A stretch of DNA of 64,000 bases, taken from the NCBI GenBank assembly GCA_036517335.1, contig DATDWX010000006.1:1279-65278 (forward strand). Reading direction: 5' to 3'. Within the stretch, counting starts at the first letter, position 1, and each line of letters begins with the position of its first letter. A model generated the notes under the pieces. That model was given only the letters and a program-made list of their open reading frames with translations, ran no database searches and had not been told where the DNA came from. Shown here piece by piece: positions 6,889 through 63,805 of this stretch. The stretch is from Minisyncoccota bacterium (lineage in GTDB: Bacteria; Patescibacteriota; Minisyncoccia; Phycocordibacterales; UBA2100). The translations under genes were made by a program, and so were the position numbers.

Positions 6889-7137
6889 ATGAGATCGAAA
6901 ACAACTGCGACAAAAAGGAAGGTGGTCCCCGGATACGATTTCTCCTATTTGTACCCGAAATATAGGGGGAAATGGGTTGCACTCACGCGCGATGCAAAGC
7001 GCGTGCTGGCCGTAAGTGATACTCTTGCCGGATTGGATCGGGATGCTGGAAAAGCTCTCGACGACGGAAAGGCGACTGTATATAGAGTGCCTGATACAGA
7101 TGCGTATTTTGTTGGCGGCTATGCGTTATTCATATAG
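6889..7137 (+). CDS. Small hypothetical protein upstream of the retropepsin-like protease
   Basis: 82-aa ORF (MRSKTTATKRKVVPGYDF...). It is the internal ATG of a longer ORF whose frame begins with TTG. Confidence 0.3.
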   Translation: MRSKTTATKRKVVPGYDFSYLYPKYRGKWVALTRDAKRVLAVSDTLAGLDRDAGKALDDGKATVYRVPDTDAYFVGGYALFI

Positions 7138-7183
7138 CATTGCGTTTCCTCCAAGAGAGGACGGTTCGTACATAATCCGCCCA

Positions 7184-7540
7184 ATGGTCGACATAAGAAT
7201 TTTTGGTCCCCAAGGTGAAAGAAATGCTAAGGCGCTTATCGATTCCGGGGCAGACTTTTCCATTGCACATGCAGAATACGCCGAAAAGCTCGGCGTTGAA
7301 AAGCAGCGCGACATTGAAATCGTTGGAGTAAACCGGCAACCTTTGAAAGGCTTTGTCGGAGTTATGGCACTGCATATTGAAGGTATTCCTGGCATGCGCG
7401 ACGTTCCATTCGTGTTTGTCGATCGGCCCTCGGAACACATAATTCTCGGTCAAGAAGGCTTTTTCGATATGCATCAAATACGGTTTGCACGACACCAGCG
7501 AATGTTCGAGATCACGAAGGTCCGCAATAAAAGCTCATAA
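7184..7540 (+). CDS. Retropepsin-like (retroviral-type) aspartic protease domain protein. The start is uncertain, with possible upstream starts at 7016 or 7100.
   Basis: Contains ALIDSGADFSIAH (the D-S/T-G-A catalytic motif of the retropepsin clan) followed by ILGQEGFF. Confidence 0.55.
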   Translation: MVDIRIFGPQGERNAKALIDSGADFSIAHAEYAEKLGVEKQRDIEIVGVNRQPLKGFVGVMALHIEGIPGMRDVPFVFVDRPSEHIILGQEGFFDMHQIRFARHQRMFEITKVRNKSS

Positions 7541-31519: not shown

Positions 31520-32089
31520 ATGAGGGCCGCCGCGATGATAGAATACGGCGAAGCCATGGATGCAATGCCGATGTCGGTCATTCTCGTTATTGCGGTTGCG
31601 ACCGTCTTTTTGTCGGTTGCGGTGGGGCTCACCTATGGGGTGCGGAGCAAGTTCGTGCGCACGCGCTTCATCATGACGGGCTTTTTTATCTACATCGTCT
31701 TTACGCTGACCGCATCATTCTGGCAATTCGCCCTTGCCACGCTCCCATACACCATCCCCGCGGCGCTGCTGGGGGTAGCGATCGGTTACTTCGTGGGCGT
31801 GCGAGCCGCGAGTGAAAAGCTGAAGATGCAAGGGGTGCAATACTATATGGAGCACTTTGCGCACGTGCACATACACGAGGTCAAAGCGCTCAATTGGTGG
31901 AGCCTCATTAATTATTATTCGGTCATGGGCGTGCTCGTGCTGATCAATTTAGTGGGGTTGAGTAACGTCATTTTCGACGGGTCGCGGCTCTGGGCCATCA
32001 TCACCAGTACGGTGGGGGCGCTCTTGATAGGGTCTATCGTCCCGTACCTCATACACTTGTGGAGTATCAGAGCTACAGGAATGCATTAA
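31520..32089 (+). CDS. Hypothetical membrane protein (5-6 TM)
   Basis: 189-aa hydrophobic ORF. Confidence 0.4.
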   Translation: MRAAAMIEYGEAMDAMPMSVILVIAVATVFLSVAVGLTYGVRSKFVRTRFIMTGFFIYIVFTLTASFWQFALATLPYTIPAALLGVAIGYFVGVRAASEKLKMQGVQYYMEHFAHVHIHEVKALNWWSLINYYSVMGVLVLINLVGLSNVIFDGSRLWAIITSTVGALLIGSIVPYLIHLWSIRATGMH

Positions 32090-32921
32090 ATCCTACAAGG
32101 GAAAGAGCAAAGGATACGAGCACTATCACAACAAGCGAGAAGAGAAACATCCGCCGCGCCCAGCGCCCGCTGCTTGCCGTCCAAAACCCAAGTATGGCGT
32201 ACAGAAGCCACAGGAGCGAAACGCCGAGGATGACAAAGCCCGCGCGCGGTGCGACAGGAATGACGAGCATAGAGAAGGCGGCGGCGAATGCTCCGATAAA
32301 GAGTACAATCTCTACTTTCGTGCGGACGAGTCCTTTTTGGAGCGGCAGTACCGGAATGCCTGCTACGGCGTATTCCTTTGCTCGATAGATCGAGATGGCA
32401 TAAAAGTGCGCCATCTGCCAGAAGACAAGGATGGCGTAGAGGAGGAGTGCAGAAGTATCGAGGGCACCCGAAACAGCTGTGTAGCCCACGACCGGTGGCA
32501 CAGCGCCCGCGAGCGCTCCCGCATAGGTGAAATAAACAGTGCGACGTTTTGCAAGCGTGTAAACGATAAGGTACATGCAGTACCCAAAGAGGAGCACACC
32601 GAGCGCCACCAGATTCGTCGCAAAGAAAAGCACCAGCGTACCGGCCAGCCCAAGTATCGAGCCGAAAATCGCCGCATGTCTTACCGAAATACGGCCTGAA
32701 GGTATTTCGCGCTCCTTCGTTCTTTCCATTCGCGCATCTATATCACGGTCAAGAATGTTGTTGATGACACACGCGCTCGCAGTGACCAGTGCAAAGCCAA
32801 TGAGCGTGTAGAACATAAGCAGCCAGTCGATCGAATCACGCGATGCAAAGAGAAATCCGGCGGCTGCGGTGATCGTATTGCCGTAGATGATGCCAGGCTT
32901 TGTGAGATTGTAGTAGTGCAT
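32073..32921 (-). CDS. cyoE: Protoheme IX farnesyltransferase (heme O synthase)
   Basis: UbiA-family blocks (NxxxDxxIDxxMxRT: NNILDRDIDARMERT) and 8-9 TM segments. Start set at MHYYNLTKPGI; the longer upstream ORF is rejected. Confidence 0.85.
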   Translation of the reverse strand: MHYYNLTKPGIIYGNTITAAAGFLFASRDSIDWLLMFYTLIGFALVTASACVINNILDRDIDARMERTKEREIPSGRISVRHAAIFGSILGLAGTLVLFFATNLVALGVLLFGYCMYLIVYTLAKRRTVYFTYAGALAGAVPPVVGYTAVSGALDTSALLLYAILVFWQMAHFYAISIYRAKEYAVAGIPVLPLQKGLVRTKVEIVLFIGAFAAAFSMLVIPVAPRAGFVILGVSLLWLLYAILGFWTASSGRWARRMFLFSLVVIVLVSFALSLVGFNAFL

Positions 32922-32938
32922 GCGAAGTGTTTGCGCCG

Positions 32939-33342
32939 TTAGTCGGCCTGCGTGGATGGAGAAATGACACCGCCGATATACATTTCCTCCACTGAAGTGT
33001 GCGTGAGGTTGCTCATGATCCACAGCGATCCCCCCACTACGATCACGACGATGAGGACGGCGAAGGCAAGCACCGTCGCATTCCAACCCGACTGTGAGCC
33101 CTTACCAAGATGGAGGAAGAAGATGAGCTGCGCCATGAGCTGCGCTATTGCGAGGACTAAAATGACGAGAATCAGCATCCCGTGCGGGAGGATCTCGTGG
33201 TGGGTAACGAGGTCCCACTGCACGAGGCCAAAGGCTAATCCAGTACACAGTATAGAAAATAAGAAACCAAAGATGTATGAGTGGATCGATCCATACGCAG
33301 ACTCGGCTCGCGCGTGAGGGGTGTTGTGATAATCGGTGCGCA
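32939..33342 (-). CDS. cyoD: Cytochrome o ubiquinol oxidase subunit IV
   Basis: 134-aa 3-TM protein (MRTDYHNTPHA...SYIFGFLFSILCTGLAFGLV...) downstream of cyoC. The longer listed ORF overlaps cyoC and is rejected. Confidence 0.7.
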
Positions 33343-33348
33343 TAGAAC

Positions 33349-33915
33349 TCACAAAAGTGCGAATAAATAGACGAACGTAAAAATAAAGATCCACACGATA
33401 TCGAGAAAGTGCCAGAACAAAGTCAAACACATGAGCTTGCTTCTGGTACCAGGAGTGAGCCCTTTGTAGAGGAGGTGAAAGAGGAGCACTAGCATCCAAA
33501 GTGAACCAAGAAAGATGTGAAGCCCATGCGTCCCCACGAGCGTGAAGAATGACGAGAGGAACGCGCTCTGCTGCCACCCGTGACCTTCGCGCACGAACTG
33601 CGCGAATTCGCTCACCTCCATTGCGAGAAAGGCACACCCGAGCGCGAATGTCGCAAGCAGGAGAATGATGACTTCTTTTTTCTTCTTGTGATGTGCAGCG
33701 AGCATCGCGAGCCCGATCGTGGCGCTCGACACGAGCAGAATGATGGTCTCGGCGAGCACAAAGGGGAGGCTGAAGAGTTCTGCCCCGGAAGGCCCGCCAA
33801 AGGTTTCCCCACGCAAGACCGCATAGGTAGCAAACAACGCCGCGAATAAGACACAGTCGCTCATCAGGTACACCCAAAACCCGAATGGCACCCTGTCGTT
33901 CGTGTGTTCGTTCAT
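33349..33915 (-). CDS. cyoC: Cytochrome o ubiquinol oxidase subunit III
   Basis: 188 aa with 5 TM segments and the conserved subunit III blocks ([37 protein letters not shown]). Confidence 0.9.
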
Positions 33916-35870
33916 ACGAGTTTACGCAGTCCGTGTTCGATCCGCGCTATTTCTGCCGCGGGCACCGTGTACTCGATATCCTCCCCGAAAGAGCGCGCGA
34001 CGACACATATGAAGATCGCAAGAAGCGCCAGCACTACGAGCCACCATATGTGCCAGACCATAGCAAAGCCGAACGCAAAACTACACGCTGCGATAATGAA
34101 GCCCATTCCCGTATTTTTCGGCATCACAATGTCTTCGTATTGTGTGCTCGCATGATTGAGGCCCGCTTGCTTCATTATCCAGAAGGCGTCGCGTCCCGCT
34201 ATGCGCGGAATGATAGCGAAATTGTAAAAAGGCACCGGCGAAGGCGTGGACCACTCAAGCGTACGACCATTCCACGAATCTCTGGGCGCAACATTGTGGT
34301 GGCGCTGGATAATACTCACGATGAGTTGCAGCGCTTGGAAGGCGAGCGCGAGCGCGATGATGCACGCGCCGATCGCAGCCACAACGAGTAGCGAATGCCA
34401 TTCGGTGGACGTGCCTATGGAAGAGAGCCGTCGCGTCATGCCCATGATGCCGAGAATATAGAGCGGGATAAATGCCGTGCAGAAGCCAACAAGCCACAAC
34501 CAAAAGGCCCATTTACCAAGCCGCTCGTTGAGGGTGAAGCCAAAGATCTTCGGGAACCAATACGTGAGGCCGGCAAAAAAACCAAAGAGCACACCGCCGA
34601 TGATCATGTTGTGGAAGTGAGCGACGAGAAAGAGGCTGTTATGAAATTGAAAATCCACACCCGGCACCGACATAAGAACGCCGCTCATTCCACCCAGCAT
34701 GAAGGTCGTGATGAATCCCAAGAACCACAGCATCGGCGTAGGAAATACGATGCGGCCGCGGAACATCGTAAAGAGCCAATTGAATACCTTGACGCCAGTG
34801 GGGATAGCGATCGCCATTGTGGCGATGCCGAAAAAAGCATTTACATCCGCCCCCGCGCCCATCGTGAAGAAGTGATGCAACCACACGAGGAATGACATCA
34901 CAACGATAAGCAAGGTCGCGATCACCATCGAGACGTACCCGAACAACTTTTTTTGCGCAAACACAGGCACGATCTCCGAAAAGATCCCGAAGGCAGGTAG
35001 AATGAGTATATAGACTTCCGGATGTCCCCACGCCCAAATGAGATTCACGTACATCATCGCGTTTCCCCCAAGGTCGGTTGTAAAAAAGTGCATGCCCATC
35101 GTGCGGTCCAGTGAGAGGAGCGCCAAGGTCGCGGTAAGGATGGGGAATGCAAAAATGACGAGCGCCATCGAGCCAAGAGATGTCCATACAAAGATCGGCA
35201 TACGCATCAGCTTCATACCAGGGGCGCGCATCTTGATGATGGTCACGAGGAAGTTGATACCAGAGAGTAGGGTGCCGACGCCGGCTATCTGCAAGGCCCA
35301 GATATAATAATCAACGCCGACACCAGGACTGTATTGCAATTCCGAGAGCGGCGGATAGCCGAGCCAGCCCGTAGCCGCAAATTGTCCTACGACGAGCGAG
35401 CAGTTGATGAGCATGGCACCAGCCGCCGTGAGCCAGAAGCTCATTGAGTTGAGAAAGGGAAAGGCGACGTCGCGCGCACCGATCTGCAGCGGTACCACAA
35501 GATTGAGAAGCCCAAACATAAGCGGCATGGCGACGAAAAAGATCATAATGACGCCGTGCGCGGTAAATATCTGCGAGAAATGCTCGCCGTTCAAAAAACC
35601 GACGTTGTCGCCTACCGCAACTGCTTGCTGGCCGCGCAGCATGAGCGCATCAATGAATCCGCGCGCGACCATTGCGAGCGACAGCAGAATATACATGATG
35701 CCTATTCTTTTTGCGTCCACCGTGGTGATCCACTCATCCCAAAGCCATCGCCAGCGTTTGAAATAAAAGAGTGCAATGATAACAGCGGATGCGCTTCCCA
35801 ATACGACCAGTTGCCCGATCGTCTCTACAAGTCCATGCTTCAATGCTTCGAGTGTTAATTTTCCGAACAT
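33912..35870 (-). CDS. cyoB: Cytochrome o ubiquinol oxidase subunit I (heme-copper oxidase)
   Basis: 652 aa. Heme-copper oxidase subunit I blocks ([20 protein letters not shown]-like HHFFTMG, His ligands). Confidence 0.95.
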
Positions 35871-35874
35871 AGAT

Positions 35875-36825
35875 CTATTCCTCCCGAGGCGCCTGCCCGT
35901 ACTGAAGTACGTTCGGGCGGGGATCCGCCTCCCTAGGAATTCCGTGCATGGGCATCCCGCGGGAGGGCTGCATAAATTTCATCAAGATCGTAGTATAAAG
36001 GTTGTCTTCCACCGTTCCATAAAAGCTCGGCGGATCTGCAGTGCTTGGATCTGCAAGCGAAGAGTATTCGTGAAGCGTGAGCGTACCTGAAGAAGTTTGC
36101 ACACCACGCACCCAGGCATCGAATGCATCCTCTGAAGTGGCGATGACCTTGAATTTCATCTGCGCAAATCCGTCGCCACTATAATTGGCCGAGCCGCCCG
36201 CGTACGTGCCCGCTTTGCTTGCAACGAGGTGGAGCTTGGTAGACATGCCAGCCATCGCATATATTTGTCCCCCAAGCTGCGGGATCCAGAATGAATTCAT
36301 CGGTGCGTCGGAGGTGATATGAAATTCGACGGGTCGGTCAATGGGCAGCGCTAAGAAATTGACCGTCGCGATGTGCTGCTCCGGATAGATAAACAACCAC
36401 TTCCACTGCAAAGCGACCACTTGAACAGTGAGTGGATGCCCGAGGACAGCGAGCTTTTTGTATGGATCGAGCTCGTGTGTACTCGTCCACGTCAGGGCGC
36501 CGAGCACCAGCACGATCTCGAAGGGAATTGCCCACCACACGAGCTCTGCCATAGCGCCGTGCTCTTCGTTCGGTGTGTACCGTGCGCCTTTGTTGCCCGC
36601 TCGATACCACCAAGCGAAAAAAAACGTAAGCGCGAGTATTGGAATGACGACTATGAGTGTAAGGAGTGTCGCCGTGATCAAAAGTGAGCGCTCTTGTGCA
36701 GCAATGAGGCCCGCCGGCTCGAGTACCGCGAATGTGTGACCTTGAAGCAGCAGTACTACAGCCAGGATCGCTCCAGCGCCAAGCGTAAAAATAATCGCAA
36801 ATATAATAGAGGGCTTCATTGGCAA
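35875..36825 (-). CDS. cyoA: Cytochrome o ubiquinol oxidase subunit II (no CuA site, quinol-oxidase type)
   Basis: 316 aa with two N-terminal TM segments and a cupredoxin-like periplasmic domain ([26 protein letters not shown]). Confidence 0.9.
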
Positions 36826-41067: not shown

Positions 41068-42111
41068 TCACTTTCTTACCCAGTATCTGTTTTTCAGAGT
41101 TTTGCTCAACCGATGCGCGTCGGCGTGTTTCAGTGCGCCCAAATAGGATTGGAGAACCGCGTTCATTTCAGCGTCTTCGATGGCTCCGTTCCGGTAAAAA
41201 TAATAAGCATGTCTGATCTTGCGAAACATCCGCTGTTTGCTTTTCTCGCGCATCAGCCGATGATGCGGGAACTGAACGTACCCGAGAAAGTCTACTCCCT
41301 TGTGGTACTTAATTATTTCCACTTTATCCGGATGCAACCCAAGCTTGAGTTTTTCTTGCAGGAACTGTTCGATGGGGGCGAGCAGTTTTTCAAGTCCCGC
41401 TTTGTCGCTGGAAACGAGAATAAAATCGTCGGTGTAGCGGACGTAATGCTTTATCTTCAATTCTTGTTTAACAAACTGGTCAAACTCGTTCATGTACACG
41501 TTGGCAAAGAGTTGCGAAGTCAGATTGCCGATGGGCACGCCTCGCGCGTGAAAGAGGTCAGGGCGGCCGGACTCAAAGCTGTCAACGATTTCTTTCAGCA
41601 ACTGCATTACTTCCGGATCCTTGATCCGCCGCGCCAGTATTGCAAGCAATATCTCGTGATCGATGCTGTCAAAAAACTTCCGGACATCGCACTTCAAGGC
41701 ATAACACTCTCGTGTGCCGTTGCGGCTCACAGCGCGAAGCATCTGCGCCAGTCGCCCCACGCCCCTGTGCGTGCCCTTGCCAATGCGGCACGAAAAGGAG
41801 TCGGCAATGAAGCCTGGTTCGAAAATCGGATTGAGCATTTTGAAAATCGCGTGATGCAGCACACGGTCGCGCACCGTAGCTTTGTGAATATGTCTGCGTT
41901 TCGGATCAGTGATGTAGAAGCCGGTATACGGCCCATGCTTGTATATTTTGTTTCTAAGGTCTCGGTGCAACTGAAAAATATACTGCTCCACCTTTTGCTC
42001 GAAATTCATTACGTCTGCCTTGTTTCGCTTCTCGCTTTTAAATATGTCCCATGCCACGAACAGATGTTCGGCCGAGGTCATTCTCTCGAATATTCGCTTG
42101 TACGTTTTCAT
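41068..42111 (-). CDS. Diversity-generating retroelement (DGR) reverse transcriptase
   Basis: 347 aa. RT motifs include the catalytic YTDD (RYTDDFILV) and the DGR-specific IGNxxSQ motif (GVPIGNLTSQLFANVYMNEF) in place of the QGxxxSP of group II intron and retron RTs. Confidence 0.85.
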   Translation of the reverse strand: MKTYKRIFERMTSAEHLFVAWDIFKSEKRNKADVMNFEQKVEQYIFQLHRDLRNKIYKHGPYTGFYITDPKRRHIHKATVRDRVLHHAIFKMLNPIFEPGFIADSFSCRIGKGTHRGVGRLAQMLRAVSRNGTRECYALKCDVRKFFDSIDHEILLAILARRIKDPEVMQLLKEIVDSFESGRPDLFHARGVPIGNLTSQLFANVYMNEFDQFVKQELKIKHYVRYTDDFILVSSDKAGLEKLLAPIEQFLQEKLKLGLHPDKVEIIKYHKGVDFLGYVQFPHHRLMREKSKQRMFRKIRHAYYFYRNGAIEDAEMNAVLQSYLGALKHADAHRLSKTLKNRYWVRK

Positions 42112-42117
42112 ATATGA

Positions 42118-42464
42118 ATGACGCTGACATTCCCATTCTCAAAAAGTCCTACGACCTCTATCGCACTTTCAACGAGTACCGAAGGGTGGTGCCCAAGGCC
42201 GACCGCCATACGATCTACGAGCGTAGCGAGAATGCGATCCTCGACATGGTCGAGTACATACTCGAAGCCGGATACAGCAAGAGCGGCGACAAGGTAGCAA
42301 TTCTTGAACGCGCGAGCGTGAAGCTCAACCTATTGCGCTTTTTTGTACGGCTCATGAAAGAGACGCGTTCTATCGACACGAAGAAATATACCGTTCTGCA
42401 AGCTCACATCGATGAGATTGGCAGGATGCTCGGCGGGTGGATACGCTCGCAGGGGAGTAAGTAA
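42118..42464 (+). CDS. avd: DGR accessory variability determinant (Avd; four-helix-bundle protein, 23S rRNA-intervening-sequence protein family)
   Basis: About 115 aa (MNDADIPILKKSYDLYRTFNEY...LLRFFVRLMKETR...AHIDEIGRMLGGWIRSQ) with Avd-like helical segmentation and a basic C-terminus. It is divergent from the RT gene. Confidence 0.7.
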
Positions 42465-42513
42465 GCGAAAGGGCATCCTCTCGGATGCCCCAACGCCCGG
42501 TGAGGAGTGACTT

Positions 42514-42643
42514 CGGGACGGACACCGACACGGAGCCATAGTTCTCATTCGGCTTGTCGACGTCGTTCATGTCGAACTTCAGCTTGTCGTCGTTGAAGTT
42601 GAGGTACGGCGAGTTCGAGAACTCGGCCTCGTCGTCCGGACGT
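42514..42643 (-). repeat. DGR template repeat (TR), 130 bp, minus-strand sense
   Basis: The reverse complement aligns over 130 bp with the target gene 3-prime end (43964..44093). The 21-22 mismatches all fall at TR adenines (for example AAC to AGC/GGC/CGC/GTC, GAC to GGC, AAG to AGG/GGG). The last 27 bp are identical. Confidence 0.85.
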
Positions 42644-43169
42644 ATGCCTTCGCCCGTCCGTGGCACCGAAGCTCGAACGTCTTTCCTGTTGGCAACAGGC
42701 GGCGCTCTCACTCCTGAATTTTATCCGGCAGCAGGGGCTCCAAATAATTACATTGAGCTCAATCCTCTGCCTTGAACGAAGGCAAGCAGTATCTCCTCAC
42801 ACCGGCACTCTCTCGCGAACCGTGATCCGCAAAACTCTGGCCTGTTTCTCATCCAGCAGGATGACCTACTGGGTCGGAAGAGAAAGAGTTCGGCGACGGC
42901 AATCCGTGAACGGCCGTGCATTAGCCTAGACTCGTAATAAAGTATACCCTAGGAAGTCCTTGACCTATATCGTGATTTTGCCCACCACAAGTCGCTCCGC
43001 TCTTGACTAGGTGGCTCAATCCTGATATAGTGCCAGGCGGTCTTTGAAAACATGGATCACTAGTTGAGGCGAGCTTTTTGATGCTTGAATAATGTAGGCA
43101 CTAAAAAGCCCGCCTCACAAACGAGGCAGCCGCAACTGCTGAAGCGGATTCAGCGCAACCTGAGAAAGG

Positions 43170-44099
43170 ATGGCTCCGATGGTAACATTGGCTCCGTCTG
43201 TTACCCACAGCGATGACAAGGGCCGCAAGTTCATGGACATCGTCGGGACGGCATACGACAAGGCAAAGCTCCCCGAAGATGAAGCGCAAAACGTCAACGA
43301 CGCACCCGGTCTTGCCGAGGTGGTCGCCGGCTTCATCGCCGACAATCGGTCTTCCAACAAGTACAAGAAGGAGGAGGTCAAGCCGCGCTGGCCCTATCCG
43401 GCCAGCTACAAGCGCGAAGCGATCGAGCGGCAGATCGACATCCTGCGCTCGGCGGCGAACTTCCCGTTCATCGATCCGGATCCGGCGATCAAGTACTACC
43501 GCGAGGTGTACGGGTCGCTCCGGCAGCCGGAATGGGTGGAGGGGCCGTTCATCATCATGCCGACCTCGACCTTGGCCAAGCACTTCTTCCCCGAAATCAC
43601 CGACGTGGCCGATCAGCATTGCCGCGCCGTCAACATCGGGATCGAGAAGCTCGGCGCGTCGCGTCCGTTCCACAACTGGCGTGCAGGCGAAATCACGACG
43701 GATCGTTTCCGGCGGAAAGCCCGCTACGTCCCGATGTACGACCGGCTCTATGCGACACAGCCGAACAGCGACCTGATCGTCGTGGGCGGCCAGTACGGCA
43801 AGTTCCACGGTGGCCAGCCGATGCGTCGTGCGCTGGAGCGGATGCAAGGCCAAGTGAGCGAGCTTCCCGCCGGTGCGCTCGAGGGTGTCGTCATGGCACT
43901 CGCGAACCCGACCCGGTACTCCAAGTGGGAAGAGCTGGACACCGACCTTCCGGCGGACGAATTCCGTCCGGGCGACGAGGCCGGGTTCTCGGTCTCGCCG
44001 TACCTCAGCTTCGGCGGCGACAGGCTGAGGTTCGGCATGCGCGGCGTCGGCGGGCCGCTTGAGCGCTATGGCTCCGTGTCGGTGTCCGTCCCGCAGTGA
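43170..44099 (+). CDS. DGR target (variable) protein. The N-terminal ~265 aa are of unknown function, and the C-terminal VR is presumably C-type-lectin/FGE-like. No obvious signal peptide.
   Basis: 309-aa ORF whose last ~43 codons form the variable repeat. The C-terminus ...RPGDEAGFSVSPYLSFGGDRLRFGMRGVGGPLERYGSVSVSVPQ matches the TR-encoded ...RPDDEAEFSNSPYLNFNDDKLKFDMNDVDKPNENYGSVSVSVP. Confidence 0.8.
   Translation: MAPMVTLAPSVTHSDDKGRKFMDIVGTAYDKAKLPEDEAQNVNDAPGLAEVVAGFIADNRSSNKYKKEEVKPRWPYPASYKREAIERQIDILRSAANFPFIDPDPAIKYYREVYGSLRQPEWVEGPFIIMPTSTLAKHFFPEITDVADQHCRAVNIGIEKLGASRPFHNWRAGEITTDRFRRKARYVPMYDRLYATQPNSDLIVVGGQYGKFHGGQPMRRALERMQGQVSELPAGALEGVVMALANPTRYSKWEELDTDLPADEFRPGDEAGFSVSPYLSFGGDRLRFGMRGVGGPLERYGSVSVSVPQ
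43964..44093 (+). repeat. DGR variable repeat (VR) at the 3-prime end of the target gene
   Basis: See the TR entry: 130-bp match with only adenine-specific differences and a conserved 27-bp 3-prime end (the presumed IMH region, tatggctccgtgtcggtgtccgtcccg). Confidence 0.85.
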
Positions 44100-44264: not shown

Positions 44265-45008
44265 ATGAACGAGGGGATCAAGGTTATTTTGGCGCCAGAG
44301 CAGTTGGGGACCTTTTTTGGGATTCCCATTACGAATACTTTGCTGATGAGCTGGGTGGTCGTGGCACTCCTACTCGTCGTTGCCGTTCTCGTAGGTAAGC
44401 GCTTGCAGCTCACGCCGTCTCGCCCCCAGGTGCTCTTCGAGTGGCTCGTCGAATTCGTGTACGACTATATTGCCGAGATTTTGGAGAGCCGGGAGCTTGC
44501 GCGCAAATTCTTTCCATATCTCTGTACCGTCTTCCTGTTTATTTTCGTCTCAAATCTCATTGAATTCACGCCCGGCATTGGCTCCATCGGATTGTTTGCG
44601 CATGACGGGGAATTTTTTCCGCTCTTGCGCAGTGTAAACACCGACCTAAACGTCACTTTGATGCTCGCCATCCTTTCCTTCCTCGTCATCGAGATCACGG
44701 GCATCCTTGTCATCGGCGCTGCAAAATACGCCGGCAAATTTCTCAATTTCCGCCACGGCTTTGTTGGATTTTTCGTCGGTATTTTCGAATTTCTCTCCGA
44801 ACTCTCGCGCATCGTTTCGTTTTCGTTCCGTCTGTTTGGCAATGTATTCGCTGGCGAAGTGCTGATACTCGTCGTCATTTTCTTCCTGCCGGTCGTCGCG
44901 CCCGTGCCGGTCATGATGTTTGAGCTCTTTGTGGGCTTCGTGCAGGCCGCTATCTTCGCGCTTCTGACGCTCTTTTTCATCAAAATAGCCATCATGGACC
45001 CGCATTGA
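44265..45008 (+). CDS. atpB: F-type ATP synthase subunit a
   Basis: 247 aa from MNEGIKVILAPEQLG, with 5-6 TM segments and the conserved Arg region (LSRIVSFSFRLFGNVFAGEVL). Confidence 0.9.
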   Translation: MNEGIKVILAPEQLGTFFGIPITNTLLMSWVVVALLLVVAVLVGKRLQLTPSRPQVLFEWLVEFVYDYIAEILESRELARKFFPYLCTVFLFIFVSNLIEFTPGIGSIGLFAHDGEFFPLLRSVNTDLNVTLMLAILSFLVIEITGILVIGAAKYAGKFLNFRHGFVGFFVGIFEFLSELSRIVSFSFRLFGNVFAGEVLILVVIFFLPVVAPVPVMMFELFVGFVQAAIFALLTLFFIKIAIMDPH

Positions 45009-45011
45009 TCG

Positions 45012-45311
45012 TTGAATATAAGAGTCATGATGCGTTTTGAATCTCCATACGGCCACATTGTGCTCACCGACGAACGCAAGCAACATATCCTTGCGTATCA
45101 TCCCGACATGGCCGACTGTTTTCGGCACTTCGCATTGACGCTTGCAAAGCCGGAGCGCGAGATCCGCTCGGTGCATGATCCATTGGCCATCATCTGCTAC
45201 AAATTTCTTCCACATCGTAAGAAATACCTTGCAATCGTGGTCAAAACGGGCGTACACCCGTTCGTATTAACCGCGTATTTGGTAAAAAGGCTGAGGGGCG
45301 CTACACTTTGA
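45012..45311 (+). CDS. DUF4258-family protein (toxin component of the DUF4258/DUF2283 type II TA pair)
   Basis: 99 aa (...HIVLTDERKQHILAYHP...KYLAIVVKTGVHPFVLTAYLVKRL), a pattern typical of DUF4258. The stop overlaps the start of the next ORF (ATGA). Confidence 0.55.
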   Translation: MNIRVMMRFESPYGHIVLTDERKQHILAYHPDMADCFRHFALTLAKPEREIRSVHDPLAIICYKFLPHRKKYLAIVVKTGVHPFVLTAYLVKRLRGATL

Positions 45312-45535
45312 ACATGCTTAGATACTTCTATGACAAAGAGGCCGATGTGTTTTATTTCTCGCAGGGCGTTCCGAGCGCATCGGATGAGACAATCGAAGCA
45401 GGAGATGACGTGCTTCTGCGCATTGCTCCGCGCTCAAAGAAAGTTCGCGGCTTCACGCTCCTCAACGCCTCACGCCGTTTGCGCGGCACCTCGCGCTCGG
45501 CGGTGCTTCCATTCATACTCGCCCCTACAAGATGA
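45308..45535 (+). CDS. DUF2283-family protein (antitoxin partner of DUF4258)
   Basis: 75 aa beginning MLRYFYDKEADVFYFS, which matches the DUF2283 hallmark YDxEADxLYI. Confidence 0.6.
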   Translation: MNMLRYFYDKEADVFYFSQGVPSASDETIEAGDDVLLRIAPRSKKVRGFTLLNASRRLRGTSRSAVLPFILAPTR

Positions 45536-45584
45536 TCGGCTTCGTGCCGACCAAAATCGCGTTCGACGCGACACCCTCCTCACA

Positions 45585-45643
45585 CTCTTCTTCATCAAAA
45601 TCGCCATCATGGACCCGCATGGGGAGACGCATTGAGCAAATGC
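45585..45643 (+). repeat. Duplicated copy of the atpB 3-prime end (displaced gene end at the cassette junction)
   Basis: ctcttcttcatcaaaatcgccatcatggacccgcat repeats atpB 44968..45005 with one mismatch in a 31-bp core. In frame it reads LLTLFFIKIAIMDPHGETH-stop. Confidence 0.8.
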
Positions 45644-45690
45644 ATTTTTAGTGGTAGCTTTTAAAAATCACATCGACGCGGGAGGCTGCA

Positions 45691-46062
45691 ATGTGTCATG
45701 GTTCTTTGAACGAATCCAACCCTCATTCGGTCTGGTTTAGCAGATTACTCATAGCGGTGGCTGCGATTTTGATGTTCGCGGTCGTGGTCTCGATAAGTGA
45801 AATCATCAGTCCATCAGCCGGGGTATTCAGTCGCGTTATGTACACCCCCGAGCAGAGAGCAGACAACATTGCTGCGAATCGCGAGTGGAATGAGGCCGTT
45901 GCTGTGCACACTCGCTTACTATCTCGCAAAACAATCCTTTGTGCGGATCCTCAGAAATGGGCAACCGCAAAAGAGCAAGACAAGCAACGATGGCACGACT
46001 ATATGCTGCGGTCGAACTATAGGACGTTCCGCTCGGAGGATCCGAGTTGCTACAATCCATAG
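45691..46062 (+). CDS. Hypothetical single-TM protein between the TA cassette and atpE
   Basis: 123-aa ORF with one hydrophobic helix; no recognisable motif. Confidence 0.3.
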   Translation: MCHGSLNESNPHSVWFSRLLIAVAAILMFAVVVSISEIISPSAGVFSRVMYTPEQRADNIAANREWNEAVAVHTRLLSRKTILCADPQKWATAKEQDKQRWHDYMLRSNYRTFRSEDPSCYNP

Positions 46063-46199
46063 CGTGGACCGTTATTGTGCCGACGGAGCGACTGCTTCGT
46101 CGGCCGCTCTGTTTTATCCGCATTGAATTGACGATTTTTGATGCTATTATGGGGCAGTCGAATTCATTTTTACTAAAACCTATAACCTAATCTATATAA

Positions 46200-46436
<237 letters not shown>

Positions 46437-48990: not shown

Positions 48991-49908
48991 ATGGCCAGCT
49001 TGAAGGAGATCAAGTTAAAGATCCAATCGTACAAAAAGACGGGAACGGTCACACATGCGATGGAGGCGGTGTCGGCGGTAAAAATGCGCAAAGGCCAAGA
49101 GCGCGCACTCTCGAGCCGCGCGTATGCCGCCGCAGCGCTCTCGGTATTGGAGCGGCTCGCTGGTACAGTCGACGTGTCGCGGCATCCGCTTATGCAAACG
49201 CGCACAGGCAAGGCGTGTTATATCGTTGTGACGAGCGATAAGGGCCTTGCGGGTTCTCTCAACAGCGGCGTCATCCGCCAAGTCGAACAAGCCATATCAA
49301 GGACGGTCCGTAAACAGAAAGATGTGGTGATGATCGCGCTCGGACGCCGCGGCGGCGATTATTTTGGGAGCCGCGGATATGATGTGCGCGCCAAGCACGA
49401 GAACGTGAGCGACAGTGTTTCGGAAGAACAAGTACGTGCCATTACCGACGAAGTGCTGAAATGGCACCAGACGGGGGGAATCACCGATGTATTTGTGGTA
49501 TACCAAAACTTCATCTCCACATTTGAACAACAACCAACGGTTCGTAAGATAGTTCCGATACTACCCGAAAAGATGAAAGAAATTGTTGCTGGTATCCGCC
49601 CCGCACGCGGCAGGTATGCACCTGTCCAAGGGGAGTCCTTGGACAAACCGGCGGCGTATACTATTGAGCCGGATGCAGATACGGTACTTGCAGAGCTTTT
49701 GCCGCGTCTCCTCAACATCGCCGTCTTCCACGCACTCCTCGAGAGTAAAGCTTCCGAACACAGCGCGCGTATGGTAGCGATGAAAAGCGCGACCGACAAG
49801 GCCAAAGAAATGGCCGGCAATCTCACCCGCACGTTCAACAAAGTCCGCCAAGCCGCGATCACCCGCGAAGTCTCCGAGATCACCAGCGGCATCGAAGCGA
49901 TGCGGTGA
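48991..49908 (+). CDS. atpG: F-type ATP synthase subunit gamma
   Basis: 305 aa. N-terminal KEIKLKIQSYKKT and C-terminal ...LTRTFNKVRQAAITREVSEITSGIEAMR, as in gamma subunits. Confidence 0.9.
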   Translation: MASLKEIKLKIQSYKKTGTVTHAMEAVSAVKMRKGQERALSSRAYAAAALSVLERLAGTVDVSRHPLMQTRTGKACYIVVTSDKGLAGSLNSGVIRQVEQAISRTVRKQKDVVMIALGRRGGDYFGSRGYDVRAKHENVSDSVSEEQVRAITDEVLKWHQTGGITDVFVVYQNFISTFEQQPTVRKIVPILPEKMKEIVAGIRPARGRYAPVQGESLDKPAAYTIEPDADTVLAELLPRLLNIAVFHALLESKASEHSARMVAMKSATDKAKEMAGNLTRTFNKVRQAAITREVSEITSGIEAMR

Positions 49909-49921
49909 AATCCAAAGGATC

Positions 49922-50371
49922 ATGAATGTTTTCGATGAGTGGAACGCGCAGAAAAAGCGAGCGGACGAAACAGAAATCATTTTGGGATTCAAAGAACGCG
50001 AGTTGTGGTTCATAAAAATGGGCAAGAATGTCGGGTTTGAGCAAGATGGCAAGGGCGATGAATTTCTTCGCCCCGTCCTTATATTCAAAAAATTCAATAC
50101 GCGCGTCTTCTGGGGAATACCGCTCACGAGGACTGAAAAGAAAGGACCCTTCTATTATCAACTTGCCAACATAGGTCAGCGACGCAATACCGCAATCTTG
50201 TCGCAGATCCGACTCTTTGATGCCAAGCGCCTCAAATATAAAATCGGTACATCCACAGCGGCGGATTTTGAGGATCTCAAAAAGTCATTCCAAGCGCTCG
50301 TTGAGTCGGCGGGGAAGCCCCGGAATGCTAAACCCCCGCACAAGACGGGGGAGGCCCGAAGGCGTTTGTAG
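49922..50371 (+). CDS. MazF/PemK-family toxin-like protein (endoribonuclease fold) with no antitoxin ORF in the cassette
   Basis: ELWFIKMGKNVGFEQDGKGDEFLRPVLIFKKFNTRVFWGIPLTRTEK...TAILSQIRLFDAKRLKYKIG parallels the conserved MazF/Kid blocks (DxxGxExxxxRPxVV, PxTS, CDQIRTxDKxRL). The segment is AT-richer than the flanking atp genes. Confidence 0.6.
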   Translation: MNVFDEWNAQKKRADETEIILGFKERELWFIKMGKNVGFEQDGKGDEFLRPVLIFKKFNTRVFWGIPLTRTEKKGPFYYQLANIGQRRNTAILSQIRLFDAKRLKYKIGTSTAADFEDLKKSFQALVESAGKPRNAKPPHKTGEARRRL

Positions 50372-50417
50372 GTCCATGATAACGGAGTACAATGAAAAGT
50401 CAATGAACACTTATACA

Positions 50418-50477
50418 CAAGCCGCGATCACCCGCGAAGTCTCCGAGATCACAAGCGGCATCGAAGCGATGCGTTGA
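50418..50477 (+). repeat. Duplicated copy of the atpG 3-prime end (58/60 identical to 49849..49908)
   Basis: caagccgcgatcacccgcgaagtctccgagatcacaagcggcatcgaagcgatgcgttga. In frame it encodes QAAITREVSEITSGIEAMR-stop, identical to the atpG C-terminus. Confidence 0.85.
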
Positions 50478-50706
50478 ACTGTTGTATACTTCACGCAGTC
50501 TGTGAAGGGAGATGCTGGTGATAAAGCAAATTCTCGCGGAGATCAAATCTCCAAATGCCTCAGCAATCAGACCGATCGGCCCCGGCGAAGTGTTATTCGG
50601 GCTCTTCGTTGCCGTCGCGATGCTCCTTGCCATCTTGGCGGCAGCCGGGAAATTATAGGGCCTTTTGGCGCAGTGGGGGTGGCTTAGCCAACCTTCACTT
50701 TTGCTA

Positions 50707-51567
50707 TCAGGCTCCGCGGACGACACCGAGTGATTCGACGATCAACCCCTTCAGCTCCATAGTAGAAAGCAGCACGTTGACTTCTGTTGTGGGGAGCTCA
50801 AGGGCGCGTATGAGTTCGTCGCGCGACAGCGGTGAGGCGATGAGATGCAGCACGCGGATCTCGCTTTCGGATAGATCGGTGCGCAATTCTAATGCGGCGG
50901 AGGTGCGCTCTTCGAGGCCGAGCGTCTGCAAAATATCAGCAGGCGAGGTAGCCGCCTGCGCGCCGAGGCGCAGGAATTGATGCGTGCCCTTGCTCGATTC
51001 GCTGAATATCGAGCCGGGCACAATGAGCAGGTCGCGATTGTATTCGGTCGCCAATTTCGCGGTGATGAGTGAGCCGCTCTTTTCTTTTGCTTCGATAACG
51101 AGTGTCGCATGAGAGAGCCCCACCATGATGCGATTGCGCTTGGGGAAGGTCCAGTCGGCGGCCGCGGTCTCTGGCTCTTCTTCGGAGAGCAGTGCGCCGC
51201 CTCGGGCCAATATCTCGCGCGCGAGCCCATGATTGGCCTTGGGATATAGCACATTCCAATCCAATCCGCTGCCCGGCACCGCGACCGTCTGCAATCCATA
51301 CTTGAGTGCCGCTTTGTGCGCCTCGGCGTCAATGCCGTATGCAAGGCCGGACACGATGACCACAGGGTAGCCAGCAAGCCCGCCGATAAGGTATTCGACC
51401 GCCTGACGACCGTAGGGCGTGCAGGCGCGCGAGCCCACCACCGCAAGCCATTTTTTGTCGGCACTCGGCAGCTCACCCCGAAGGTACAGGCGTTTGGGTG
51501 CGTCCGGTATCTCTCGCAAGAGCGGTGGAAAATCAGAAGGAAAAAGCTGTTTGAGGTCGTCGGCCAT
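50707..51567 (-). CDS. dprA: DNA processing protein A
   Basis: 286 aa with a Rossmann-like DprA domain (VVSGLAYGIDAEAHKAAL, GTPY, the SGSLITA region). Confidence 0.85.
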   Translation of the reverse strand: MADDLKQLFPSDFPPLLREIPDAPKRLYLRGELPSADKKWLAVVGSRACTPYGRQAVEYLIGGLAGYPVVIVSGLAYGIDAEAHKAALKYGLQTVAVPGSGLDWNVLYPKANHGLAREILARGGALLSEEEPETAAADWTFPKRNRIMVGLSHATLVIEAKEKSGSLITAKLATEYNRDLLIVPGSIFSESSKGTHQFLRLGAQAATSPADILQTLGLEERTSAALELRTDLSESEIRVLHLIASPLSRDELIRALELPTTEVNVLLSTMELKGLIVESLGVVRGA

Positions 51568-53754: not shown

Positions 53755-54327
53755 TCAAAACCCCATCGTGAAGGTCATGGGCTTCGCGCTCTCGTCGAGC
53801 CACTTTGAGGTGTCGAGTTTTACTTCGCGGAGTTTGCCGAGCTCTTTGTATTTCACGTGACCCTTTTGTAGCGCATAGTCGAATATCTTTTTGGTGAGCT
53901 CCACGTCTTTGAGGCAGTAGCTCCTCACTTTTTCTATTTCACCGTCGCGCCACCATCGCACCGATTGCGCGCCGCCGGCGCTTTTATTCTCCCCGAGCGT
54001 ACCCTCGGCGACGGCATCCAATTTTACGCGGCGACCGAGCGAGGTGTAAATTTCTTTGAGCAAGTCCACTGATTTAATGCGCGAGAGATCGCCGGGGTAG
54101 TATTTGTTCAAGAGCGGAATGTCGAAATGATCAGAGTTGTAGCCCACAAGCAGATCAGTTTGCTCAAGGATTTTCCACAATTTTGGCAACTCCGGTTCGA
54201 GGAAGCTGGCATAGCCTACTTCGGAGTCGTGGATCCCGATGAGCGCGATCTTCAAATCTGCCGGATCACTACCGCCGACTTCAGAAAACCAATTAGCCGT
54301 TTCAATGTCAAACGTTAGCACGCGCAT
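53755..54327 (-). CDS. DEDD-family 3-prime to 5-prime exonuclease (DnaQ/RNase T-like)
   Basis: Exo I motif LTFDIETA, Exo II YNSDHFDIPLL, Exo III YCLKDVELT. Confidence 0.7.
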   Translation of the reverse strand: MRVLTFDIETANWFSEVGGSDPADLKIALIGIHDSEVGYASFLEPELPKLWKILEQTDLLVGYNSDHFDIPLLNKYYPGDLSRIKSVDLLKEIYTSLGRRVKLDAVAEGTLGENKSAGGAQSVRWWRDGEIEKVRSYCLKDVELTKKIFDYALQKGHVKYKELGKLREVKLDTSKWLDESAKPMTFTMGF

Positions 54328-63040: not shown

Positions 63041-63063
63041 CTGTCCAAGGGTTCCCCTTGGAC
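63041..63063. repeat. REP-like palindrome (tgtccaagggttccccttggaca)
   Basis: 23-bp near-perfect palindrome 24 bp upstream of the RAYT start. It shares its sequence with three other copies in the window. Confidence 0.8.
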
Positions 63064-63086
63064 AAAAAACAGGATACGATTAGGCA

Positions 63087-63752
63087 ATGGAGAGGGACTT
63101 CGTGTTTCAAGAGGAGTGCATCTATCACATATACAATCGCGGCGTTGAGAAACGTACAGTTTTCAACGACGACAACGATAAACTCCGATTCCAAAGAATG
63201 CTCTACCTCGCCAACGGCGATAAACCAATCGTCTTCAAACGTGTCCAAGGGGAACCCTTGGACAAGGATCGGGGCACGGCGAGCACGGCTATTCTTGCAT
63301 ACTCGCTCATGTCCAATCATTTTCATATCGTCGCCAAGGAGGTACATACTGGAGGCATCAGCAAGTTTATGGGAAAGCTCTCGACGTCGTATTCCATGTA
63401 CTTCAACATAAAGAATGATCGGAGCGGGCCTCTATTTTGCAGGCCCTTTCGCTCAAAACCTGTCGGTAGCGATGATTACTTGCGCTGGCTTATGTCGTAT
63501 GTGCATTTAAATCCTCTTGACCTTTTTCAGCCCGGCTGGAAGGAAAAGGGAATAGGCGACACATCTGAGGCAAAGAAATTCTTGGCCTCGTACCCATTCT
63601 CAAGTTATCCCGATTACTTTGGAAATAGGCTTGAAAGCAAAATCATAAGCAGGGATGCGCTTCCCTTTCACGTAAATGCTCTCGAAAGCGTGGATGAAAT
63701 GCTGAAAGACTTCAAAGCTCGCCCGGAGTTACCCACAATTGAGGTCTGGTAA
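63087..63752 (+). mobile_element. IS200/IS605-family Y1 (HUH) tyrosine transposase-like protein, REP-associated (RAYT-like)
   Basis: 221 aa. HUH motif SNHFHIVAKE, catalytic Tyr region YVHLNPL, and an N-terminal IYHIYNRGVEKRTVF block typical of IS200-like TnpA. Confidence 0.75.
63242..63264. repeat. REP-like palindrome in inverse orientation (tgtccaaggggaacccttggaca), located inside the RAYT coding sequence
   Basis: Same 23-mer as the flanking REPs. It encodes RVQGEPLDK within an insertion relative to typical IS200 TnpA proteins. Confidence 0.8.
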
Positions 63753-63782
63753 CGCCCCCAACTTTGTTTGCCCTGTCCAAGG

Positions 63783-63805
63783 GTTCCCCTTGGACAGGAT
63801 TCGGT
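63783..63805. repeat. REP-like palindrome (same orientation as 63041)
   Basis: tgtccaagggttccccttggaca, 31 bp downstream of the RAYT stop. Confidence 0.8.

Follow-up and report, generated by a model that had tools for sequence, protein, structure and literature searches.

How does a predicted toxin-antitoxin gene pair, which encodes no recombinase of its own, come to sit directly behind the ATP-synthase gene atpB, between two copies of the end of that gene? This question was raised by a stretch of 64,000 nt (hereafter the window; positions 1,279 to 65,278 of contig DATDWX010000006.1, assembly GCA_036517335.1) from a Minisyncoccota bacterium. The first-pass annotation, made from the sequence alone, described a cassette of a DUF4258-like and a DUF2283 protein inserted at the 3' end of atpB, and took the repeated gene end as the footprint of a small element that had brought a replacement end and left the original one behind. 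In the present study, we examined the repeat, the two genes and the corresponding loci of relatives, and we found that the observation is real and that this interpretation is supported by the data, although the label DUF4258 was not supported for the window protein and the mechanism of insertion remains inferred.

The repeat and the gene pair behind atpB

The search for repeats returned a 45-nt direct repeat with 40 of 45 positions identical and a spacing of 615 nt, whose local-alignment score lies 22 sd above that of shuffled sequences, and the 31-nt core with one mismatch that had been noticed at first lies inside it. The repeat is, however, longer than first reported, since a second block, GGCTTCGTGC, occurs at 44934 and again at 45538, demonstrating that the downstream copy (about 100 nt, 45536..45635) starts 2 nt after the antitoxin stop and carries an 11-nt insertion. 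This remnant reads ...LLTLFFIKIAIMDPHGETH-stop, whereas the functional atpB is 4 aa shorter (Table 1). The arrangement is not an assembly artefact: six contigs from separate assemblies match positions 44900-46260, from the atpB end through the atpE start, at 99.9-100% over all 1361 nt, and two shorter contigs match part of it.

Table 1. Features of the atpB and atpG regions, in coordinates of the window
Position	Strand	Feature	Remarks
44265..45008	+	atpB (F-type ATP synthase subunit a), functional	Pfam ATP-synt_A, E 4.6e-41; ends ...FFIKIAIMDPH-stop; relatives 74-86% identical
44934..45008	+	E1, upstream repeat copy, the working atpB end	Ungapped core 44961-45005; by analogy with locus L021, the stop codon TGA and everything after it are element-borne
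45009..45026	+	Short spacer with an AAGAG ribosome-binding site	No promoter predicted, so the cassette is probably transcribed from atpB
45027..45311	+	Predicted toxin, 94 aa, BECR-fold RNase-like protein of the PBECR2/PBECR3 family	ORF 45012..45311, probable start ATG 45027; motif LTDERKxHIxxxHPD
45314..45535	+	Predicted antitoxin, 73 aa, DUF2283	ORF 45308..45535, probable start ATG 45314; Pfam PF10049, 25.3 bits (gathering threshold 23.0), E 1.7e-5, profile positions 2-49 of 49
45536..45575	+	Arm, the decayed 5' part of the atpB-end remnant	11-nt insertion; small hairpin TCGCG-TTCGA-CGCGA at 45557-45571; shared with L018, L021, L019 and L094
45576..45620	+	E2 core, downstream repeat copy	All 5 mismatches to E1 are synonymous
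45621..45635	+	Displaced original atpB tail, GGGGAGACGCATTGA (G-E-T-H-stop)	Functional ends of relatives read PHGSEAH, PHGEAH and PYGEAH
45691..46104	+	Unrelated 123-aa membrane-like ORF (45691..46062) and terminator hairpin (46079-46104)	Between the remnant and the atpE promoter; not part of the cassette; other genomes hold different ORFs in this slot
46123..46436	+	Native atpE promoter (TTGAAT-16-TATTAT, 46123-46150) and atpE (46209..46436)	
49849..49909	+	E1', last 61 nt of atpG (48991..49908), including its stop codon	
49922..50371	+	149-aa PemK/MazF-like predicted toxin, starting 13 nt after the atpG stop	Pfam PF02452, E 3.6e-7; homologues found
50418..50478	+	E2', duplicate of the atpG end	59/61 identical, both mismatches synonymous; same architecture in L075-L078

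The two small genes are adjacent and co-oriented, with 2 nt between the toxin stop and the antitoxin ATG, and the pair is conserved in more than 40 loci, the antitoxin being always paired with the toxin in relatives. For the toxin, Pfam gave no hit to the 99-aa ORF at E <= 0.1 and NCBIfam gave none to the 93-aa form; NCBIfam scans of the three small ORFs gave nothing useful. The toxin has 362 representative relatives; of 89 family members, 66 hit PBECR2, 27 hit PBECR3 and only 7 hit DUF4258, so that the DUF4258 label holds at the superfamily level only. The AlphaFold2 model (pLDDT 93.6) was best matched in the PDB by 7m5f_C, a chain of a contact-dependent inhibition system entry, at probability 0.98 and TM-score 0.60, albeit with a weak E-value of 0.09.

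One correction concerns atpE, which does not follow the remnant directly, because the unrelated 123-aa ORF and its terminator lie in between. This ORF gave only a sub-threshold Pfam match (E 0.054), and the slot ORFs of the related loci L011 and L019 likewise had no significant Pfam hit. A 101-aa ORF at 45330..45635 proved to be an artefact of the open remnant frame, overlapping the antitoxin and lacking any family hit. An apparent third copy of the atpB end at 46119-46128 (CCGCATTGA) was rejected as well, as it overlaps the conserved -35 box of the atpE promoter, where L018, L019 and L021 have ATTGAATTG or ATTGAGTTG without the CGCA prefix. Translation of the remnant by readthrough from the antitoxin was ruled out by the reading frames, which differ in the window and in L011 and coincide only in L015. 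The arm hairpin was not supported as an intrinsic terminator, since it was not called by the terminator scan and folds no better than shuffled sequence in most loci.

Occupied and empty sites in related genomes

The first-pass annotation had named three tests, namely empty sites in relatives, profile searches of the two ORFs (given above) and a survey for other cassettes bounded by gene-end duplications. Empty sites were found: all 8 relatives from reference genomes have atpB followed by atpE after about 60-200 nt, and the closest ones end ...IMEPHGSEAH-stop and ...IMQPHGAEAH-stop, like the downstream remnant of the window and unlike its functional end. Relatives carrying the two genes at this position without a repeat, which would have spoken against the interpretation, were looked for and the opposite was found, as relatives with the cassette at atpB all carry the repeat.

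In the survey, the same cassette family was flanked by a duplicate of the neighbouring gene's own 3' end at atpB (the window and, among the loci recovered from relatives, which we number with the prefix L, L011, L018/L021/L022 and L019), at efp (L015, L039) and at an RNase_H_2-like exonuclease gene (L028, L035, L041). Repeat scores lie 12-50 sd above shuffles for atpB, efp, L028 and the L037-L039 rpsR-end repeat, and 4.7 sd above for L041. About 60% of distinct loci carrying this toxin-antitoxin family, nevertheless, show no flanking repeat. The architecture also occurs with independent cargoes: a MazF-like toxin behind atpG, in the window itself and in L075-L078, and DUF5678 plus an aspartyl protease behind atpB in L094, with the same arm. 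MazF-like relatives behind ftsI (L079-L082) and in L083-L087 show no repeat, so the architecture is not universal for that family.

Lateral movement is evident from L021 and L018, whose flanks are about 79-80% identical, while a 649-nt block from the E1 core through the toxin-antitoxin pair to the E2 core has 1 mismatch, the identity ending inside the repeats. The element-borne tail is identical in three different flank combinations, while the host tails differ. Direct proof of the replacement end comes from a sister lineage, in which two AtpB proteins, P0286 and P0287, are identical except for their tails, and the P0286 contigs (L088-L093) are empty sites. The empty allele L089 matches the occupied allele L021 at 98.7% over 2562 nt downstream; in L021 the functional atpB ends in an element-borne tail (...PHGEAAH-stop), and the native tail (...PHPEAH-stop) sits after the cassette. 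The junctions show host-to-element and element-to-host switches within about 9-17 nt of a 56-nt shared core. L021 and the empty allele L088 come from the same metagenome (the polymorphic metagenomes are JGI 3300025323 / Ga0209542 and ENA ERZ27254845). L022 and L088, which have mixed flanks, could be assembly chimeras, although that arrangement recurs in independent assemblies. For the window's own population no empty allele was found, all contigs carrying the identical AtpE also carrying the cassette.

Of 55 mismatches between repeat copies, 47 fall at third codon positions, with 43 synonymous and 6 non-synonymous codon differences (binomial P = 4e-8 against 0.5), so the two copies are diverged functional alleles and not a decayed target duplication. 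The remnant of L078 has an in-frame stop, so remnants are not coding.

Only two ORFs lie between the repeats, neither of them a recombinase, and the same holds in all related loci. Within the window, Pfam scans of 25 ORFs and a reading by eye of the first 70 residues of the other ORFs of 90 aa or more revealed no recombinase either; the only transposase-like ORF is a RAYT-like Y1 transposase 17 kb away, and DprA, a competence gene, is adjacent. No copies or relatives were found on viral contigs, which gave no support to carriage by phage.

Competing explanations for the duplicated gene end

We consider that the region holds a 0.6-kb mobile cassette whose cargo is a type II toxin-antitoxin pair and whose address is a copy of the last few dozen bases of a conserved host gene, here atpB. 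In this view, recombination between the carried gene end and the chromosomal atpB end places the cassette directly behind the atpB stop codon, whereupon the working gene finishes in the element's version (...IMDPH-stop) and the host's original end (...IMDPHGETH-stop) is left behind the antitoxin as a non-functional remnant. The same logic would explain the MazF-like toxin behind atpG.

The architecture and its lateral mobility are shown by the data, and we hold them with high confidence. What remains is inferred and only somewhat more likely than not: that recombination is carried out by the host's homologous recombination system (RecA) after DNA uptake, either as Campbell-type insertion of a circular form or as a double crossover in the two repeat cores; that one-sided, homology-facilitated illegitimate recombination may have founded each new gene-end association; and that the cargo, together with the position next to an essential gene end, then stabilises the insertion. 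Growth arrest by the toxin and its neutralisation by the antitoxin are likewise inferred, from family membership and gene arrangement. Taken as a whole, this explanation is held with moderate confidence. RecA-type recombination on 30-70 nt of imperfect homology is inefficient, no circular or tandem junction was observed (it would read arm, core and element tail, ...GACGCGACGCGCTCCTCACGCTCTTTTTCATCAAAATCGCCATCATGGAGCCACATGGGGAGGCC...), the short crossover interval in L021 would also suit a site-specific enzyme, and how a cassette first acquires a new gene end is left unexplained by the model. Moreover, the cassette of the window is about as diverged from its relatives (75-81% DNA identity) as the flanks are (75-78%), so here it may have been inherited vertically for a long time.

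The best surviving alternative, though an unlikely one, is a miniature site-specific element similar to a CIME or to Xer-dependent modules, in which the repeats would be the attL and attR of an integrative element that has lost, or never had, its integrase and is moved by an integrase or host recombinase supplied in trans, the arm hairpin and core serving as the recognition site. Direct repeats at a gene's 3' end with a replaced gene end are indeed the classic footprint of integrase-mediated integration, CIMEs are defined as elements that keep attL and attR but have lost their integration genes (PMC5704250), the crossover in L021 is narrow, and the small hairpin is conserved in the arms of four lineages, even with a different cargo. 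However, none of the 46 metagenome loci, nor the loci from protein look-ups, shows a larger integrase-bearing relative between the repeats; the targets (atpB, efp, the exonuclease gene, atpG) share no evident motif, so several helper specificities would be needed; the remnant of L011 lacks the hairpin; and the hairpin folds no better than shuffled sequence in 3 of the 4 arms that carry it. No integrase was seen in the 64-kb window by the partial Pfam scans and the reading of ORF N-termini.

An ancestral, immobile arrangement, in which a local duplication of the atpB end arose once, the pair was inherited vertically and gene conversion keeps the remnant similar to the working end, is very unlikely. 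It would agree with the parallel divergence of cassette and flanks between the window and L011, L018 and L019, and with the decayed arm shared by several lineages, which indicates common descent of that part. It is contradicted, however, by the near-identical cassette in flanks only 80% identical, by empty alleles in near-identical backgrounds, by the same architecture at other genes and with other cargoes, and by the identical element-borne tail, and gene conversion would erase differences between the copies and not bias them toward synonymous sites.

The weakest reading, a long target-site duplication made by staggered breaks or by reverse-transcriptase-mediated insertion and followed by decay of the downstream copy, could draw on the variable duplication lengths (about 27-100 nt) and on retroelement reverse transcriptases close to the cassette in the window, L018, L028, L035 and L041 (a diversity-generating retroelement lies 1-3 kb away in some loci), but a fresh duplication would start identical and decay at all codon positions, the functional tail differs from the native one and travels with the element, the atpB repeat mismatches (T/C, G/C, G/A, T/C and A/C) are not adenine-specific whereas the retroelement's own template/variable repeat pair shows 22 of 22 mismatches at adenines, and L011, L019 and L094 have no reverse transcriptase nearby. 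Nor is the cassette an insertion sequence or transposon, as there is no transposase, no inverted repeats lie at the cassette ends, and the duplications are 27-100 nt long and are diverged alleles.

Relation to described elements and meaning of the finding

Elements that replace a gene end are already known. Phage 21 and e14 at icd in E. coli, ICESt1/ICESt3 at fda, and many elements at tRNA or tmRNA genes integrate into a gene's 3' end, those in protein genes supplying a substitute end; the general description of att sites is given in PMC5704250. As in those cases, direct repeats flank the element, one of them reconstituting the 3' end of the target gene, the working gene ends in element-borne sequence that differs from the native end mostly at synonymous sites, and the native end is displaced to the far side; but those elements are 10-100 kb and encode a tyrosine or serine integrase, while this one is 0.6 kb, holds only a predicted toxin and antitoxin, and has related cassettes that address several different genes. 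CIMEs (cis-mobilizable elements, PMC5704250) are likewise bounded by att-like repeats at a gene's 3' end and carry no integration genes, yet they are decayed ICEs or IMEs that depend on a cognate ICE with the same att specificity, whereas no such parent or helper was seen among the 46 metagenome loci, the look-up loci or viral contigs, and the unit is uniform (toxin plus antitoxin) across dozens of loci.

In the C-terminal displacement of rhs/CDI loci and the sequential displacement of T6SS effector-immunity modules, proposed to occur by homology-facilitated illegitimate recombination (PMC5361080, citing Jackson et al. 2009), an incoming module carries a short stretch of the conserved gene plus a toxin and its immunity gene, recombines at the gene's 3' region without a recombinase and pushes the previous end downstream as an orphan. 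The displaced atpB end corresponds to this pattern, and the predicted toxin fold is best matched by a contact-dependent inhibition chain. In those systems, however, the toxin is the C-terminal domain of a carrier protein that is itself a weapon, while here the carriers are housekeeping genes (atpB, atpG, efp), the toxin is a separate cytoplasmic toxin-antitoxin gene starting 18 nt after the atpB stop, and the carrier protein changes by only a few residues. Toxin-antitoxin islets without mobility genes (PMC13617665) are also tiny toxin-antitoxin-only insertions between core genes, thought, as are the Neisseria minimal mobile elements, to spread by transformation and homologous recombination in flanking genes, but they carry no duplicated gene end and no replacement of the neighbouring gene's terminus.

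A more far-reaching reading, which we offer only tentatively as somewhat less likely than not, is that these are members of an undescribed class of homology-addressed mobile cassettes, each a sub-kilobase unit with a copy of the 3' end of a conserved housekeeping gene as its integration address, a swappable selfish cargo (PBECR2/DUF2283, MazF-like, or DUF5678 plus an aspartyl protease) and no recombinase. If true, this would give a general, testable mechanism for the long-noted mobility of toxin-antitoxin loci that lack mobility genes.

Toxin-antitoxin loci are patchily distributed and horizontally mobile, yet most chromosomal copies have no associated mobility genes, and how they insert is largely unknown. 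Here the footprint of insertion is explicit, with a replaced gene end and a displaced native end, with empty and occupied alleles coexisting in one environmental population, and with one near-identical 0.65-kb unit in genomes that are 20% diverged. It also shows that essential operons such as atp can be edited at their gene ends by such elements, and it gives annotators a simple signature, namely a gene-end duplicate 0.5-0.8 kb downstream. The recurrence of the same architecture with three unrelated cargoes and at four or more housekeeping genes points to a general route by which selfish genes colonise the streamlined genomes of Patescibacteria, a route that needs only a short stretch of homology.

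Gene order behind atpB and the duplicated gene end

The region analyzed here belongs to a Patescibacteria (candidate phyla radiation) genome close to Kaiserbacteria/Paceibacterota, and its features, together with those of the related loci for which positions matter, are collected in the table below. The first-pass annotation had described two small genes behind atpB followed by a second copy of the atpB end, and this observation proved to be correct. The second copy consists of a decayed stretch, here called the arm, a core, and a tail, GGGGAGACGCATTGA, so that the copy reads through LLTLFFIKIAIMDPHGETH to a stop codon. The repeat scores 22 sd above shuffled sequence. Moreover, six contigs from independent assemblies match positions 44900-46260 at 99.9-100% over the whole length, and two shorter ones match part of it, so the arrangement is not an assembly artefact.

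Coordinates of features in the window and in related loci (L numbers denote contigs recovered in the searches)
Sequence	Coordinates	Strand	Feature	Support
window	7016..7540		aspartyl-protease ORF, similar to that of L094	no repeat detected nearby
window	32073-36825	-	ORFs resembling haem-copper oxidase subunits (N-terminal sequences read by eye), next to a UbiA-family prenyltransferase	UbiA, Pfam E 2.6e-55
window	41068-44099		complete diversity-generating retroelement, just upstream of atpB	all 22 mismatches at template adenines
window	41068..42111	-	its reverse transcriptase
window	42051..42464	+	its bAvd
window	42510-42642		its template repeat (inverted)
window	43170..44099		its target gene
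window	43965-44097		its variable repeat, at the C-terminus of the target gene
window	44265..45008		atpB	Pfam ATP-synt_A, E 4.6e-41
window	45009..45026		18-nt spacer
window	45027..45311		toxin-like ORF, 94 aa
window	45314..45535		DUF2283 ORF, 73 aa	25.3 bits against a cutoff of 23
window	45536..45635		second copy of the atpB end, starting 2 nt after the antitoxin stop
window	45536-45575		decayed arm of that copy	11-nt insertion
window	45576-45620		45-nt core of that copy	40/45 identical to 44961-45005
window	45691..46062		unrelated 123-aa ORF, in the slot 45691-46104	no significant Pfam hit
window	46079-46104		terminator of the 123-aa ORF
window	46123..46150		native atpE promoter
window	46209..46436		atpE
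window	48991-50478		second gene-end duplication, at atpG
window	49849-49909		last 61 nt of atpG
window	49922..50371		PemK/MazF-like toxin, 149 aa, starting 13 nt after the atpG stop	Pfam E 3.6e-7
window	50418-50478		61-nt duplicate of the atpG end	59/61 identical, both mismatches synonymous
window	50707-51567	-	DprA, natural-transformation gene	Pfam DNA_processg_A, E 8e-68
window	53755-54327	-	homologue of the RNase_H_2/PolB-exonuclease-like gene	no cassette here
window	63042-63861		region of the RAYT-like transposase and its four REP-like units
window	63087..63752		RAYT-like Y1 transposase	Pfam Y1_Tnp, E 1.7e-7
L011	4643-4909	-	unrelated 88-aa ORF in the slot before the atpE promoter	no Pfam hit
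L019	3068-3454		unrelated 128-aa ORF in the same slot	no Pfam hit
L039	1334-2487		compound structure where efp and rpsR converge
L094	3203-4024		DUF5678 protein (66 aa) plus retropepsin-like aspartyl protease (141 aa) at the atpB site	51-nt atpB-end repeat

The toxin-like protein has no direct Pfam or NCBIfam hit. However, a profile search found 362 representative relatives, and of 89 aligned relatives 66 match PBECR2, 27 match PBECR3 and only 7 match DUF4258. An AlphaFold2 model is confident (pLDDT 93.6), and its best solved match is 7m5f_C, a chain of a contact-dependent inhibition system entry, at probability 0.98 and TM-score 0.60, though the E-value is weak at 0.09. We therefore take the pair, from sequence and predicted structure, to be a type II toxin-antitoxin module with a BECR-fold RNase-like toxin, and the earlier label of "DUF4258-like" is right only at the superfamily level.

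In an attempt to find empty sites, we examined relatives from reference genomes, and in all eight of them atpE follows atpB after about 60-200 nt; in the four closest, the atpB stop codon overlaps the -35 box of the atpE promoter. The closest relatives end in IMEPHGSEAH and IMQPHGAEAH. The downstream remnant in the window therefore looks like the native end, while the working end (IMDPH and stop) is the unusual one. In addition, the short slot between the atpB remnant and the atpE promoter holds a different unrelated ORF in the window, in L011 and in L019, but none in L018 and L021, and looks like a second variable spot next to the cassette.

Recurrence of the arrangement and exchange between lineages

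Word-based and metagenome searches recovered about 25 distinct loci with this toxin-antitoxin family, and flanking duplications of the neighbouring gene's own 3' end occur in three clear settings. The first is atpB, with a repeat of 72 nt in L011, of 57 nt in L018, L021 and L022, and of 37 nt in L019. The second is efp, with a 51-nt repeat in L015, both copies running through the stop codon, while L039 carries an efp remnant after the antitoxin. The third is a 190-aa RNase_H_2/PolB-exonuclease-like gene ending in THTLPF, with repeats of 27-35 nt in L028, L035 and L041, whereas L034 keeps the remnant. L039 also has a duplicated rpsR end on the opposite strand: after the antitoxin come the efp-end remnant and then the functional rpsR end, a 63-nt rpsR-end remnant lies upstream of the toxin, and an extra 94-aa ORF with a terminator sits between efp and that remnant. 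Nevertheless, about 60% of loci, mostly the more divergent cassettes, show no repeat.

Mobility is shown directly in a sister lineage. The flanks of L021 and L018 are only about 79-80% identical, and yet a 649-nt block, running from the core of the upstream repeat through both genes and the arm to the core of the downstream repeat, differs at a single base. The tail of the working atpB (PHGEAAH and stop) is identical in L018, L021 and L022, while the displaced tails differ with the host. Two AtpB proteins, P0286 (ending in PHPEAH) and P0287 (ending in PHGEAAH), are otherwise identical, and the contigs with P0286 (L088-L093) have atpE directly after atpB. Of these, L089 is 98.7% identical to L021 over 2562 nt downstream, and its empty site has one copy of the segment that is duplicated in L021. 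In L021 the upstream copy is host sequence up to ATGGAGCC and element sequence thereafter, whereas the downstream copy is element sequence up to about the same point and then host sequence; the exchange point lies within about 9-17 nt of a 56-nt near-identical core. L021 and the empty allele L088 come from the same metagenome. This is exactly what is expected of an element that brings a replacement end and displaces the original one, and the interpretation offered by the first-pass annotation is thus supported. Furthermore, L022, L088 and L091 have L021-like atpB upstream and L018-like atpE and onward downstream (95.6% identical), and they exist both with and without the cassette, so that the atpB 3' end looks like a recombination breakpoint between two diverged lineages, unless these are chimeric assemblies.

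The two copies of the gene end are diverged functional alleles. Across nine repeat pairs at atpB, efp and atpG, 47 of 55 mismatches lie at third codon positions, with 43 synonymous and 6 non-synonymous codon differences (P = 4e-8 against 0.5), and a duplication made at insertion and then left to decay would not give this pattern. The remnants themselves are not coding, since that of L078, a relative with the atpG arrangement, has an in-frame stop, those of L021 and L094 have non-synonymous changes, and their frames relative to the antitoxin are inconsistent. The arms are old and decayed, while the cores and tails look fresh. This fits an element-borne arm combined with a host-derived tail captured at the most recent integration, although we cannot rule out refreshment by recombination with empty alleles.

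Other cargoes and neighbouring features

The cargo is not what defines the element. In the same operon of the window, the PemK/MazF-like toxin sits behind atpG and is followed by the duplicate of the atpG end, with no antitoxin gene evident, and relatives L075-L078 repeat this arrangement, with 8 of 8 mismatches synonymous. L094, whose AtpB is 89% identical to that of the window, carries a third cargo at the atpB site, flanked by its atpB-end repeat and by the same arm as the toxin-antitoxin cassettes, including the same 11-nt insertion.

DprA lies directly downstream of the atpG cassette, and atpD and atpC do not follow atpG in this window. The diversity-generating retroelement upstream of atpB is present in L018 but absent from L011, L019 and L094. 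The RAYT-like transposase is flanked by four copies of a palindromic REP-like unit, TGTCCAAGGGnnCCCCTTGGACA. As for the oxidase-like ORFs, respiratory oxidases are uncommon in Patescibacteria, but in this case the resemblance was judged by eye and only the neighbouring UbiA assignment rests on a profile hit.

Inferred mechanism and comparison with known systems

The analysis itself establishes the architecture, the element-borne replacement tails, the lateral transfer of the unit, the coexistence of empty and occupied alleles and the absence of any recombinase between the repeats, whereas the enzymology of the exchange, like the toxicity of the one protein and its neutralization by the other, is inferred. 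We favour, with moderate confidence, host homologous recombination through the carried gene end, because each cassette carries homology to its own target, the targets share no visible motif, and no integrase-bearing relative appeared among dozens of loci or on viral contigs. In addition, Pfam scans of 25 window ORFs, together with reading by eye of the first 70 residues of the remaining ORFs, found no integrase but only the distant RAYT-like Y1 transposase, while DprA lies next door. Homology-facilitated illegitimate recombination, which has been proposed for the analogous displacement of T6SS effector-immunity modules and rhs tips (PMC5361080), could explain how a cassette first becomes linked to a new gene end. 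A site-specific recombinase acting in trans, as for a CIME-like element (PMC5704250), remains a serious rival, since the exchange interval is short and a small hairpin next to the core is conserved.

The footprint matches that of integrase-bearing elements that replace a gene's 3' end, but the present unit is 0.6 kb and has no integrase. It works like the C-terminal displacement of rhs/CDI loci, but on housekeeping genes and with a free-standing toxin-antitoxin pair. It extends the recently described toxin-antitoxin "islets" that lack mobility genes (PMC13617665) by adding a concrete insertion footprint.
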